Origin: a phage
Strand: one strand, 5' to 3'
Assembly (NCBI GenBank): GCA_036252695.1
Contig: GCA_036252695.1_4122.1
Length of the DNA: 64,000 bases
Of the stretch, positions 44,029 to 60,677 are shown in pieces (position 1 is the stretch's first letter; the number at the start of each line of letters is the position of its first letter). The notes beneath the pieces are model-generated. The model made no database searches. It was not told where the DNA came from and worked only from the letters and a program-made list of their open reading frames with translations. Both the position numbers and the translations under genes were made by a program.

Positions 44029-44595
44029 ATGGTTAAATCTTTGCTACCACCACCAAAACGTCATAAAATCAAAGAAATGAAAGAACAACGTACATTAAAG
44101 ATGTACAACAATTTAGTTCAGTTACTGTGTAAAAGTCCATCGCTCAAAGCAGAGTTTAAAACTGATGATGACCGCAAAGCACTAATTGAGATGAAGTATA
44201 TGCTCAGTAAAATGTCCTTTTACAAATTTGTAAAAGAATACACAACTGACCCATTTAGTCCTCGTTGGAGATCCAAACCAAGAGAGTATTTTTACGGTGG
44301 TTCATATACGGATCGCATTCAAGACACAGTGATGGGAGTTGAATTTGAAATCGATTATGAGCCGAATGGTGTGGAAAGCTGGCCGATTGAGAAACGTTTA
44401 CCAAGTGAAGAAGAAATTTATGTTTATGCAAGAAAACTTTCAAATTTCAGTTCAAGAATTACTCTAGGCAATTTAGATTCATTTATTATTTTCTATACAC
44501 GTGTTGGTGTAGATAAAATGGTAACTAAACTCAATGAACTTTCATTACAACAAAAACAGATTAATGCATACAAAGACATTACTGATTTATACTAA
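44029..44595 (+). CDS. hypothetical protein (triplicated family, copy 1)
   Basis: 188 aa; motif D.R..L...KY.LSK shared with the next two ORFs; GGAGG RBS. Confidence 0.55.
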   Translation: MVKSLLPPPKRHKIKEMKEQRTLKMYNNLVQLLCKSPSLKAEFKTDDDRKALIEMKYMLSKMSFYKFVKEYTTDPFSPRWRSKPREYFYGGSYTDRIQDTVMGVEFEIDYEPNGVESWPIEKRLPSEEEIYVYARKLSNFSSRITLGNLDSFIIFYTRVGVDKMVTKLNELSLQQKQINAYKDITDLY

Positions 44596-44601
44596 TGAGG
44601 A

Positions 44602-45123
44602 ATGGATATGTTTTTTGGATCAGTTGGAAAACAAAACAGTACTTTAATTTGGCATGAAATTATCTTTAAAATTATATCTAAAAGCTACTCACTAAAGGAT
44701 ATTATTACCACAGATAATGATAGACGTATCCTGTTAGATGCAAAATATAAATTGAGCAAACACCCTTTACTTTCTTTAATCATTGATTACGTTTGTGATT
44801 ATGAATCTAGTCGTTGGAAGTGGGAAGACGGCGGTTTATTTCGTGGAAAAACATTCTACGGTGCGGAACGATATGTTTTCAGTGATACATCAAATGGCGT
44901 TAAGTTTGTTATTAGAAACTTTAACTCCAAAGAAAATGATTATCTTGAAAGTGGAGTGAAAGTATATATCGATAATAATAGCAATGTACTAACATATGAC
45001 GAATCACTAATTATGTTACAAATAATGCGTGGTGTTGAAGGTGTAAGAAACAACCTTACTAAATTGAAAATCCAGCAAAATGATATACATAATAGACAGA
45101 AAATTAAGGGTTTATATAAATGA
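44602..45123 (+). CDS. hypothetical protein (triplicated family, copy 2)
   Basis: 173 aa paralog (TDNDRRILLDAKYKLSK). Confidence 0.55.
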   Translation: MDMFFGSVGKQNSTLIWHEIIFKIISKSYSLKDIITTDNDRRILLDAKYKLSKHPLLSLIIDYVCDYESSRWKWEDGGLFRGKTFYGAERYVFSDTSNGVKFVIRNFNSKENDYLESGVKVYIDNNSNVLTYDESLIMLQIMRGVEGVRNNLTKLKIQQNDIHNRQKIKGLYK

Positions 45124-45629
45124 TTTCATTTTTCAAAAAGAAACAAAAAGTTGATGAAACCGGATTAGAATCGTTTCTATGGACTCTTATCATCAAAAAA
45201 AGTCCATTGATAAAAGAATATGCTATCAATGATGCTAATAGAAAAACTATCATTGAATACAAATATGAATTATCTAAATGTGATCCAATTGTTTATCACT
45301 TTGCGAAGTACTGTTCAAAAAATTTATCGGATATCACAATCTACCACGAGTCAGTCCCAATGAGTTTTCCTTATGGTGATTGGGTAGATACTTTTGATAT
45401 TTTTGATGGGTCAAATGGTTTCAGTTTCTTTTACTCGTCAAATAAAGCAAGTGTTCGTATTAAAACAGACATAGGTTGGACAAAGCATAGCTCAAATAAA
45501 GAAGATTATAATTTATTAGCTGACGTATACCGAAGTGTGAAGAATTCAAAGGATATTGATGAAAGAATTAAAAAGCAAAATCGTATATCTTTATCACTTG
45601 AAACATACAAGTCAAAGTATGGTGGTTAA
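45120..45629 (+). CDS. hypothetical protein (triplicated family, copy 3)
   Basis: 169 aa paralog (NDANRKTIIEYKYELSK); ATGA overlap. Confidence 0.55.
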   Translation: MISFFKKKQKVDETGLESFLWTLIIKKSPLIKEYAINDANRKTIIEYKYELSKCDPIVYHFAKYCSKNLSDITIYHESVPMSFPYGDWVDTFDIFDGSNGFSFFYSSNKASVRIKTDIGWTKHSSNKEDYNLLADVYRSVKNSKDIDERIKKQNRISLSLETYKSKYGG

Positions 45630-45631
45630 CT

Positions 45632-46033
45632 ATGACTACAGTTGATGATATCTATAGCACTATACGCAATATGAGTACAGATAGAAAAGTATTTGGCGAT
45701 AAAGAAAAATCTAAGTGTTATGGTATTGATTCTTTTGATATAATTTCTTATGAGTACAATACAAGTGGAAATAGTTCACTGAATATCGTCTGTCCTCGTG
45801 ATCCAGAAAATAATTTTATGTATGTTGAAATTAATAATGATGGAATGTTTTTTACAAAAGTTTTCAAAGGTGGAATTAATTACGAACCTATTGAATGTAT
45901 GAATGAAGAAACTTTCTTTCAAGAAGATACAATTATCAATTTAGGTTTTAGTTTTGATGATTATAAAACATTAGAACATGACTTTAATCGTTATTATAAT
46001 GGTTTCTTAAAGGAGTTAACAATTTATCTATGA
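45632..46033 (+). CDS. hypothetical protein
   Basis: 133-aa ORF. Confidence 0.5.
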   Translation: MTTVDDIYSTIRNMSTDRKVFGDKEKSKCYGIDSFDIISYEYNTSGNSSLNIVCPRDPENNFMYVEINNDGMFFTKVFKGGINYEPIECMNEETFFQEDTIINLGFSFDDYKTLEHDFNRYYNGFLKELTIYL

Positions 46034-59252: not shown

Positions 59253-59266
59253 ATGGAGTTTTAATT

Positions 59267-59662
59267 ATGAATTATTCCTGGATGGAAATTGTAAAATCTC
59301 TAATATCAACACATGATATGGACTTACCTGAACACCTAGTTATTAATAGATGGTACTATCCATATCCAGATAACCGTTGTGTTGGGATTGGATTTTTTAT
59401 TAATGAAAAATCTCAATATATTGGATTAATTGAAGATTATACAAAAACCAACATTGCGTTCTCTATTGAGTTGAATGTAGATCACATAAAATACTACACC
59501 AATAAAATGGACGAAGAAGATGGTGATGTTATAATTCCAGCAGAAATAGACGAAGCTTCATTTTTTCAGTTATCATTAATTCATGATGTATCTGATATTA
59601 CTTATGATAATGTGAAAGACCTTTTTATATTGTACAATAAACTGTATAATTACTTTTTATAA
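59267..59662 (+). CDS. hypothetical protein
   Basis: 131-aa ORF. Confidence 0.5.
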   Translation: MNYSWMEIVKSLISTHDMDLPEHLVINRWYYPYPDNRCVGIGFFINEKSQYIGLIEDYTKTNIAFSIELNVDHIKYYTNKMDEEDGDVIIPAEIDEASFFQLSLIHDVSDITYDNVKDLFILYNKLYNYFL

Positions 59663-59675
59663 TGGAGATAAATGT

Positions 59676-59861
59676 ATGGAATATACAATATGTATAGTTA
59701 TATGTATCATATCCTTACTAGTCGGGGTTGGTGTGATGATTTATTGTGATGCAGAACCCAGTACTGAAGTAGGAACAACAATAACACTTAAACCTGGTGT
59801 TAAAGTTAATGATAATTATTGCTATGATCCAAACACTAATCGATATGAGATTTGTCTATGA
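59676..59861 (+). CDS. small membrane protein
   Basis: 61 aa with an N-terminal hydrophobic helix. Confidence 0.45.
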   Translation: MEYTICIVICIISLLVGVGVMIYCDAEPSTEVGTTITLKPGVKVNDNYCYDPNTNRYEICL

Positions 59862-60268
59862 AAAAGTTTGATATTAAACCTATTATTGATGCTATCGAAA
59901 TTAAATTAAAAAATACTAAAAAGCCAGATAGTACAGGTTTGTTCTTTAGTTTAGATAAAATGTATTATGAAACACACGTGTCAAGTTATGATAGAACAGG
60001 AAATCTCTTCATCCGTACATATAACATATTTTATAGTGAAGATGTTTTTATGATAGATATAAATCTGGATGAAGGTATAGTGTTGATGTATATTGAGGAT
60101 GTTCAATCCACAGAACAACGAAACGGGACTCTTCCTATTGCTGCTACAGAGGAAGAGTTTTTGCAATATCAGTTCATTGAGGATACCTTTGGTATTGACT
60201 TTGATACATATCAGAGTATAATGAGGGTATACGAACTTTATGAGGATTATGTGATTGGACGTTACTAA
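59852..60268 (+). CDS. hypothetical protein (duplicate pair, copy 1)
   Basis: 138 aa; C-terminal F.EDTFGIDFDTYQ motif shared with the next ORF. Confidence 0.5.
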   Translation: MSMKKFDIKPIIDAIEIKLKNTKKPDSTGLFFSLDKMYYETHVSSYDRTGNLFIRTYNIFYSEDVFMIDINLDEGIVLMYIEDVQSTEQRNGTLPIAATEEEFLQYQFIEDTFGIDFDTYQSIMRVYELYEDYVIGRY

Positions 60269-60677
60269 AATTCCAAAATTTAATGAAACGTTAAAGTACT
60301 TTGCTGAACACGAAATCAGTACTGAAAGACGTGGTTTGATTTCATACAATCATCATCGTGTTATGTACACTAATAATTTCCAGGGTACAGTTCGTATTAA
60401 ATTTCGTAATGCACTCGACGACAATGATGAATTGTTAATTTTACTACGAAAAAGTAAGATAGAATTGACATACGCAACTCACCATATTGAAAGTGAGTTG
60501 ATGTGGCACACACTATCAAAAAAAGAAGGGACATTACCAGTTGATGATAATGGACCGGAAACACTTGATCAGTACATGTTCATTGATGATACATTTGGTA
60601 TTGACTATTCTGCATATCAGTGTATACTAGCTATACACAAAAAATATTACGACCGTCTACGTGATAGATTAATTTAA
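60255..60677 (+). CDS. hypothetical protein (duplicate pair, copy 2)
   Basis: 140 aa; FIDDTFGIDYSAYQ motif. Confidence 0.5.
   Translation: MDVTKIPKFNETLKYFAEHEISTERRGLISYNHHRVMYTNNFQGTVRIKFRNALDDNDELLILLRKSKIELTYATHHIESELMWHTLSKKEGTLPVDDNGPETLDQYMFIDDTFGIDYSAYQCILAIHKKYYDRLRDRLI

Follow-up and report, generated by a model that had tools for sequence, protein, structure and literature searches.

Diverged tandem paralogs of four gene families and a candidate structured RNA in an accessory region of an Asteriusvirus jumbo phage

The window analyzed here, a stretch of 64,000 nucleotides (nt) of phage DNA (contig GCA_036252695.1_4122.1), carries between positions 44029 and 60677 nine small genes that fall into four families of adjacent paralogs, together with one large gap free of open reading frames (ORFs). 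The window belongs to Asteriusvirus and comes from a 121Q/G17-like Escherichia coli jumbo phage of about 350 kb within the RaK2-like clade, as judged by megablast of positions 44000-61000, which matched 45 phage records. The best matches, at 97.8% identity over 90% coverage, were to Escherichia phages vB_EcoM_G17 and Sharanji; 121Q, PBECO4, phAPEC6 and others came next. Gene-by-gene comparison was made with six Asteriusvirus relatives, 121Q, G17, CRJP21, fEgEco12, A4 and Turkey5. None of the six was identical to the window, the genes of which switch between G17-like and CRJP21-like segments. The GC content of the window is about 30-38%, and all genes compared or annotated in 44-61 kb lie on the + strand. 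The paralogs and the features next to them are given below; dN/dS values (ratio of nonsynonymous to synonymous substitution rates) are pairwise Nei-Gojobori estimates of the window versus fEgEco12 for the eight copies with an ortholog there (50135 has none).

43966-43989, + strand: terminator-like hairpin directly upstream of the triple, the terminator also annotated in G17, overlapping a promoter-like site (TTGACG-17-TATAAT, 43978-44006)
44029-44595, + strand: triple copy 1, 188 amino acids (aa), phrog_18641, dN/dS 0.33
44602-45123, + strand: triple copy 2, 173 aa, start annotated at 44608 in relatives, dN/dS 0.24
45120-45629, + strand: triple copy 3, 169 aa, phrog_7868, dN/dS 0.10
50094-50117, + strand: terminator-like hairpin upstream of 50135, its T-run forming the start of the duplicated Cys unit
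50135-50407, + strand: Cys family, type C copy, 90 aa
50428-50784, + strand: Cys family, type B copy, 118 aa, phrog_6343
52782-52802, + strand: terminator-like hairpin directly upstream of 52823
52823-53455, + strand: phrog_18200 copy 1, 210 aa, dN/dS 0.40
53825-54409, + strand: phrog_18200 copy 2, 194 aa, dN/dS 0.11
59852-60268, + strand: phrog_20693 copy 1, 138 aa, start annotated at 59858 in relatives, dN/dS 0.27
60255-60677, + strand: phrog_20693 copy 2, 140 aa, dN/dS 0.37
49426-50082, + strand: HNH gene, annotated neighbour upstream of the Cys pair

An all-versus-all BLASTP of the 234 translated window ORFs of at least 50 aa, both strands included, placed the proposed pairs among the seven best non-self matches of the whole window: 50135/50428 (54% identity, E=5e-34), 44029/44602 (29% over 183 aa, E=1e-12), 59852/60255 (41% over 54 aa, E=2e-9) and 52823/53825, the former read from position 52793 (25% over 188 aa, E=3e-8). 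The third gene of the triple, 45120, matched weakly by this method (E=0.014 with 44029 and E=0.066 with 44602). Profile-profile alignment with hhalign was carried out on 31 genes in 44-61 kb, each aligned with orthologs from the six relatives. The six highest-ranking relations were the six proposed, with probabilities of 100, 100, 96.9, 96.2, 92.4 and 85.5%; within the triple these were 100% for copies 1 and 2, 92% for copies 3 and 1, and 86% for copies 3 and 2. The next pair stood at 21% and all others fell below 7%. PHROGs hidden Markov models (HMMs) gave the same sets, with phrog_18641 and phrog_7868 (which cross-match) for the triple, phrog_6343 for the Cys pair, phrog_18200 for 52823/53825 and phrog_20693 for 59852/60255, at E-values from 1e-91 to 2e-5; all four sets are annotated there as of "unknown function". 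The copies lie 0-370 nt apart. Alignment is full length in three of the families, and 59852/60255 align by hhalign only over the C-terminal portion of about 87 profile columns. An earlier note on this DNA, made from the letters of the sequence, had proposed these sets as several independent tandem duplications. Significant similarity was found within each of them, the four families are unrelated to one another and each consists of adjacent same-strand paralogs, and the list is correct and, within 44-61 kb, complete. Two additional relations were considered and not accepted: 59267 as a third member of the 59852/60255 family, for which hhalign was far below noise, and a link between 45632 and 59267, which reached just 21% in hhalign.

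With respect to the triple, the motif TD.DR..L...KY.LSK, said in the earlier note to be shared by all three genes, is exact in copies 1 and 2, whereas copy 3 reads ND.NR..I...KY.LSK. The invariant positions of the alignment are K-S..D..R..K..S plus a C-terminal Y. Three positional orthologs were recovered from 6/6 Asteriusvirus genomes by tblastn and family HMMs. Those of A4 and Turkey5 are just 30-38% identical to the window copies, compared with about 60% for neighbouring genes, and on these identities the family is judged to be old and fast-evolving. When 1.84 billion representative proteins were searched exhaustively with the profile of this family, 36 clusters were returned, with proteins of about 75-210 aa apart from two long multi-stretch proteins (438 and 1,493 aa). 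A tblastn search with one protein of the family reached the Klebsiella phages RaK2, K64-1 and Muenster. The Muenster locus is syntenic (tail fibres, family, nucleotidyltransferase, spanins, HNH) and carries two tandem members (HMM E~1e-36). In a neighbour-joining distance tree copy 3 grouped with Muenster gp236, and copies 1 and 2 grouped with gp235, a placement which makes copy 3 the oldest branch of the triple and the ortholog of gp236. Since the two Muenster genes divide the triple in this way, the first split predates the divergence of Asteriusvirus and Alcyoneusvirus, with the split between copies 1 and 2 occurring later.

The second family had been described as Cys-rich. The window copies contain 6 Cys in 90 aa (50135) and 4 in 118 aa (50428), and only two are invariant across three allele types (in YHCTYER and GVKC), with two further Cys common to types B and C only; Cys richness is not a trait of the family, and a zinc-binding module with four conserved Cys/His ligands was rejected. 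Type A is the allele of G17, 121Q, fEgEco12 and A4, each with a single copy; type B comprises 50428 and copies in CRJP21 and Turkey5; type C comprises 50135 and a copy in CRJP21. Identities are 65-67% between types C and B, 50-56% between A and B and 42-48% between A and C. The type B gene 50428 is just 53-56% identical to the type A copies and 97% identical to the single copy of Turkey5, from which it differs by three amino acids with no synonymous change (dN 0.011, dS 0). The genes flanking the pair differ from those of Turkey5 at dS 0.5-2, with values of 2.0 for the HNH gene and 0.5 for the DUF7325 gene.

The type C copy, which has internal deletions of 12 and 4 aa and a C-terminal truncation of 14 aa, was present in 1 of the 36 deposited genomes that hold the family (CRJP21, 100% identical), the other 35 being single-copy. 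Its remaining carriers are the window and a few metagenome contigs, and it is 94-100% conserved in five independent contigs. Metagenome contigs L010, L012, L013 and L014 contain the same tandem of 90-aa and 118-aa genes, 20 nt apart. The backbone of L010 is Turkey5-like, with flanks 97-99% identical; the B copy of L010 and L013 is 100% identical to that of Turkey5, and Turkey5 and JNE01 differ from L010 solely by the absence of C. Compared with G17 and 121Q, the extra DNA of the window corresponds to one repeat unit (blastn alignments stop at 50167 and restart at 50410), which begins in the T-run of the 50094-50117 terminator and takes in the ribosome-binding site (RBS). Type C as the sole resident allele was not seen in any lineage so far, C always being followed by B. 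A recent lineage-specific duplication was rejected as the origin of this pair, the same pair being found in a different backbone in metagenomes, and the pair moves as a cassette between backbones. The duplication that separated B from C would have taken place within the allele-B lineage, and homologous recombination would have carried the two-gene cassette from a Turkey5-like backbone into a G17-like one, where it replaced allele A.

The alignment of 52823 with 53825 has 35 invariant columns, and one unrelated 393-nt gene lies between the two. The start at 52823 is taken as correct because the upstream ATG at 52793 is inside the terminator hairpin. Copy 1 was found in G17, 121Q and fEgEco12 and was absent from CRJP21, A4 and Turkey5; copy 2 was found in every relative, and RaK2 contains a homolog of it at 30% identity. 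In the fourth family the sequence FI[ED]DTFGID[FY], given previously as common to 59852 and 60255, is present in both. Both copies are absent from Turkey5 and present in the other relatives compared. A 372-nt gene which the window does not have, seen in fEgEco12 (g278, L002 16758-17129) and Turkey5 (L008 19324-19695), gave a marginal match (E=0.001) to the HMM of this pair; it may be a distant third member of phrog_20693 persisting in Turkey5, where the pair is missing. Gene conversion between 59852 and 60255 was rejected. In a 49-nt patch shared by the two genes, orthologs are 92-98% identical and paralogs 73-77%, and this greater likeness of orthologs points to functional constraint.

Across the four sets, paralogs share 25-66% amino acid identity, and near-identical tandem copies were found nowhere in them. 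The longest direct DNA repeats are two in the Cys pair, of 99 and 86 nt with 79% identity, and one of 49 nt in 59852/60255, with 86% identity. Ortholog dN/dS was 0.10-0.40 for the eight copies, with neighbouring genes mostly at 0.02-0.33 and one at 0.68, and the ORF of every copy was intact in all carriers. These two observations identify all members as maintained genes. Each tested copy is under purifying selection, and since the copies are also intact, each probably does something slightly different.

Per-gene dS to fEgEco12 ranged from 0.09 to 2.4, and this spread is read as the signature of a recombination mosaic. Presence and absence among the relatives varied for 52823, the 59852/60255 pair and 50135. 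Together with other genes gained or lost, an intein unique to the window and a missing tail-fibre module, these results uphold the view of a variable accessory region. The accompanying claim in the earlier note, that duplication is recurrent and ongoing, did not stand: there is no recent copy pair, DNA likeness is confined to patches of at most 99 nt at 79-86%, and the rarest duplicate, 50135, was not made in this lineage, its cassette also occurring in the Turkey5-like backbone in metagenomes. The duplications are ancient, and what keeps the region dynamic at present is not new duplication but homologous recombination, the exchange of cassettes and the loss of genes among old paralogs.

For three of the four families, a word-indexed search was run against 5.8 billion proteins and gave 8, 24 and 9 clusters. 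Each family appears from its homologs to be confined to the RaK2-like jumbo-phage clade. The paralogs are non-virion proteins. Their orthologs in phAPEC6 (gp319-321c, gp309c, gp302c and gp289-290c) are all absent from the virion mass-spectrometry table of that phage, which lists from this region only gp306c, gp314c and gp315c (PMC7247149). Three of the four sets are immediately preceded by a terminator-like hairpin; two of these hairpins are also annotated in G17, and the three sets likely stand at the head of predicted transcription units.

We consider it about 80% probable that the nine genes represent four unrelated small accessory families of old, in-place tandem duplicates, confined to the RaK2-like clade, non-virion, and now recombined as cassettes. 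Each family would have grown in the distant past through tandem duplication of an entire unit of RBS plus ORF, for which unequal or illegitimate recombination is the presumed mechanism. The copies would have diverged to their present 25-66% identity while remaining intact under purifying selection; in the triple, the copy-3 lineage would have separated from the ancestor of copies 1 and 2 before Asteriusvirus and Alcyoneusvirus parted, and copies 1 and 2 later. Homologous recombination between co-infecting relatives would then swap, insert and delete units as cassettes, producing copy-number differences between near-identical phages.

A number of points weigh against this reading. The dN/dS values come from pairwise Nei-Gojobori comparison rather than from a codon model on a tree, and at 25-66% amino acid identity paralog dS would be saturated, so that the duplications cannot be dated by dS. 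In-place duplication is not formally separable from very old allele stacking by recombination. With respect to function, Pfam gave no match for the nine paralogs or for 28 members of the widened triple family, sequence and profile searches of the PDB gave nothing significant for the triple and the phrog_18200 family, and fold searches gave no convincing match for the two families modelled. The two AlphaFold models were of low to moderate confidence (pLDDT 58.5 and 69.3), and PADLOC-style reasoning also gave nothing. A promoter scan of the region was not enriched, with 99 sites versus 96 expected by chance.

Among the alternatives, the one which survives best, and which we nevertheless regard as unlikely, is that adjacent copies are xenologs, that is, divergent alleles from different phage lineages stacked by recombination. 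The mosaic character of the region (dS 0.09-2.4), the existence of three Cys allele types with a C+B cassette that has demonstrably moved between backbones, and the start of the Cys unit within a shared segment of terminator T-run and RBS, at which crossovers could take place, are all in keeping with such an origin. It is less easily reconciled with families that appear clade-confined, and hence offer no outside donor, or with copies whose order and positional orthology stay the same from one genome to the next and between genera. The alleles themselves also argue for duplication, type C being closer to B (65-67%) than either is to A (42-56%), as expected if C arose from B.

An ongoing adaptive amplification under host-defence selection, similar to the poxvirus "genomic accordion", is very improbable. 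Close relatives do differ in copy number, by two versus one for the Cys and phrog_18200 families and by two versus zero for phrog_20693, but cassettes that diverged long ago and were gained or lost account for these differences. The near-identical copies of such an amplification were looked for and were not found, paralogs being 25-66% identical with no direct DNA repeat above 99 nt at 79%. Finally, similarity by chance or composition, or the decay of one member of each pair as a pseudogene, has next to no probability, for although the genome is AT-rich, with 30-35% GC, the BLASTP matches of copy 3 are weak and truncation has left the 90-aa Cys copy shorter than its 118-aa paralog, this is refuted by profile probabilities of 85-100% that then drop to noise, the 35 invariant columns of 52823/53825, intact ORFs in every carrier with dN/dS of 0.1-0.4 for eight copies, and the 94-100% conservation of the 90-aa copy in five independent contigs.

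For the old tandem duplicates that we favour, host interaction (takeover or anti-defence) would be the likeliest role, because the families are clade-restricted, diverge fast under purifying selection, are polymorphic in presence and absence, are non-virion and, in three of the four sets, likely stand at the heads of transcription units. The paralogs could then be seen as exchangeable anti-defence or host-takeover cassettes, which is one possible reading of the sequence data. The four clade-specific, selectively maintained families are thus candidates for host-interaction functions and are useful for the annotation of phages considered for therapy. Their wider value is modest: the accessory content of these jumbo phages varies by recombinational shuffling and loss of old tandem paralogs, not by fresh duplication.

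The ORF-free gap of the span was analyzed separately, and is a finding in its own right. The features of the gap, and further copies of the RNA element for which it gave evidence, are as follows.

51231-51829, + strand: candidate structured RNA of about 550-600 nt, in the sole large ORF-free gap (51183-51872) of the span
51184-51211: TG-extended -10 promoter-like site upstream of the RNA
51488 and 51641: internal 30-nt direct repeat
121Q 326676-327185 (L023 1754-2263): further copy of the RNA
121Q 192839-193315 (L031 2904-3380): further copy of the RNA
GAP32 (L005 19765-20314): further copy of the RNA
Citrobacter prophage (L034 3546-4130): further copy of the RNA

About 270 nt of the gap match Cronobacter, Yersinia, Xanthomonas and Erwinia jumbo phages at about 77%, and sensitive blastn lengthened the match to about 480-550 nt at 69-71%. 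In the 40 kb around the RNA site of GAP32 and Yen9-04 there was no tblastn match to window proteins; across genera the RNA is conserved at about 70-77% at the nucleotide level, more than the surrounding protein genes. The GC fraction of the element is 0.38-0.45, versus 0.23-0.34 in its flanks. When IMG/VR was scanned for exact matches to the invariant block GAGAGAAACNGAGCAACCCGCTTTCG, 15 loci came up; three of them belong to the 121Q genome, and several other contigs have two each. All 15 are full-length copies of 480-620 nt, and the two extra 121Q copies, on inspection, lie in ORF-free gaps.

RNAalifold applied to 18 non-redundant copies predicted 94 pairs in 17 helices, of which 44 pairs showed compensatory double changes. 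The proportion of cells paired was 97.2%, compared with 83.8% in shuffled controls (0/500 as high) and 38-42% in slid controls. Pairs with double changes numbered 44, 28.8 and 8-13, and cells with double changes 222, 67 and 11-27, in the observed, shuffled and slid alignments respectively. Invariant G·U pairs place the RNA on the + strand. The copies show no conserved reading frame, with indels that do not come in multiples of three and a longest open frame that shifts in both strand and frame from copy to copy. Covariance models of Rfam 15 gave no match at E<=1 in 19 kb, and with the element alone at E<=10 gave noise only (E=0.28 and E=2, on the opposite strand). ARAGORN found no tRNA or tmRNA in the element. 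A tRNA or tmRNA, an Rfam family, a protein-coding region and a gene-interrupting intron were each considered and none fits, the copies examined lying in ORF-free gaps.

Among deposited phages the element occurs at 214 places in 61 records of RaK2-like jumbo phages. Most Asteriusvirus genomes carry four copies (range three to five), and two to four were found in GAP32, CBB, Yen9-04, Serratia BF, the Erwinia SNUABM phages, Salmonella Munch/7t3, Klebsiella fENko-Kae01 and EJP2. The hosts of the 61 phages are Escherichia, Salmonella, Klebsiella, Cronobacter, Yersinia, Erwinia, Serratia, Pectobacterium and Xanthomonas. Each RNA paralog has its own orthologs across genera, the copies within a genome being dispersed and anciently diverged. 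A search of 185,579 species genomes turned up a single copy. It lies in a prophage of Citrobacter amalonaticus, with a large serine recombinase (integrase) on one side and a CI-type repressor on the other; PADLOC gave nothing for its neighbours.

The RNA is unannotated almost everywhere it occurs, and no description of it was found in the literature searched. A study of PA5oct, a distant relative, reported four non-coding RNAs "without similarity" to anything (PMC7318152). The motifs reported in a virome-wide RNA survey are all 29-151 nt long (PMC10690425), and that survey may therefore include pieces of this RNA. On balance we think that 51231-51829 probably belongs to an undescribed 17-helix structured-RNA family. 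It would be a further large "ornate" RNA of phages, with a lifestyle like that of GOLLD and ROOL, and the duplication theme of the span would by the same reading extend to a non-coding gene. Large many-helix covarying RNAs are seldom found, and every new class has led to biology not known before. One present in several copies in a well-cultivable group of E. coli phages would be directly testable; the RNA matters more than the protein paralogs and is the item worth pursuing in this span.

Several further observations concern the gene neighbourhood. The RlaP-family nucleotidyltransferase at 46030-48306 is 758 aa in the window versus about 410 aa in 121Q, G17, CRJP21, fEgEco12, A4 and Turkey5. 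The difference is an insertion of 346 aa (46990-48027), which spans CYSFDTEF to HGN, is followed by C and holds a LAGLIDADG_3 domain; it is an intein with a homing endonuclease, found in 0/6 of the relatives compared. Between the nucleotidyltransferase and an ACP-like gene, 121Q, G17, CRJP21, A4 and Turkey5 carry tail-fibre genes that the window does not have. In 121Q this module (507-509, about 3.4 kb) consists of a small ORF and tail-fibre gene(s), and the equivalent site in the window is at about 48306-48330 (compared with segment L001 4841-8259); the module is missing from both the window and fEgEco12. This is an indel of a receptor-binding module, with likely consequences for host range. 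An embedded spanin pair, i-spanin at 48790-49164 and o-spanin at 49161-49469 with lipobox LIISGC, agrees with the annotation of relatives and is ordinary.

Genes for RNA repair and translation are dispersed through the region. In addition to the RlaP nucleotidyltransferase they include a 2H-SAK phosphoesterase (57358-57768), an HPF/RaiA ribosome hibernation factor (58881-59213), a CCA-adding enzyme (60813-61925) and a Nudix hydrolase (62033-62434), and together they may constitute a phage toolkit for tRNA/RNA repair and translation control. Another tandem set lies beyond the span described in the earlier note, as four to five consecutive ORFs of about 90-103 aa at 1177, 1449, 1706, 2028 and 2302 (window 1177-2586), linked by BLASTP at E=1e-6 to 6e-5 and by common matches to phrog_21004 and phrog_32291. 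Two tail-fibre-like paralogs of about 890 aa, at 37920-40616 and 41301-43961, share 27% identity (E=1e-59, phrog_3573), and the 195-aa gene between them (40628-41215, phrog_26864) has their C-terminal portion of about 120 aa.

Paralogous genes are not new to this group of phages. In the related Pectobacterium phage CBB, 22 paralogous ORFs have been reported and attributed to duplication (PMC5259590), and a review names paralogous genes as a general trait of jumbo phages (PMC5348500). The sets described here resemble those of CBB in that they come from the same clade and are small hypothetical-protein paralogs, encoded on the same strand in long co-directional runs; what is added is the order of splits around a genus divergence, purifying selection for each tested copy and copy-number polymorphism of cassettes. 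The four families were not individually described in the RaK2-like phage literature surveyed, but the kind of phenomenon is already known and is ordinary for jumbo phages.

The hyperplastic regions, or "plastic periphery", of T4-like phages, reportedly set out by Comeau and colleagues in 2007, and the phage "morons" said to go back to Juhala and colleagues in 2000 are similar in being clusters of small, fast-evolving ORFs of non-essential appearance between conserved modules, often bounded by terminators or promoters, exchanged by recombination and situated near homing endonucleases, here the HNH gene and the LAGLIDADG intein. Morons, in contrast, are defined by acquisition from outside and autonomous transcription, whereas the units described here are clade-internal duplicates. 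Poxvirus "genomic accordions" and giant-virus multigene families, reportedly described by Elde and colleagues in 2012, are likewise tandem paralogs in large double-stranded DNA viruses with copy-number differences between strains, and accordion genes are those of host interaction. They differ in that accordions are recent arrays of near-identical genes, while the copies in this region are ancient and highly diverged.

GOLLD and ROOL are large ornate RNAs associated with phages and prophages, and both are Rfam families. The RNA at 51231-51829 is like them in length (about 500-600 nt), in its many helices and strong covariation, in its occurrence in phages and a prophage, and in its intergenic position. 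It differs from them in matching no Rfam 15 family in sequence or structure, in belonging to jumbo phages of Enterobacterales hosts, and in being carried as two to five dispersed copies per genome.

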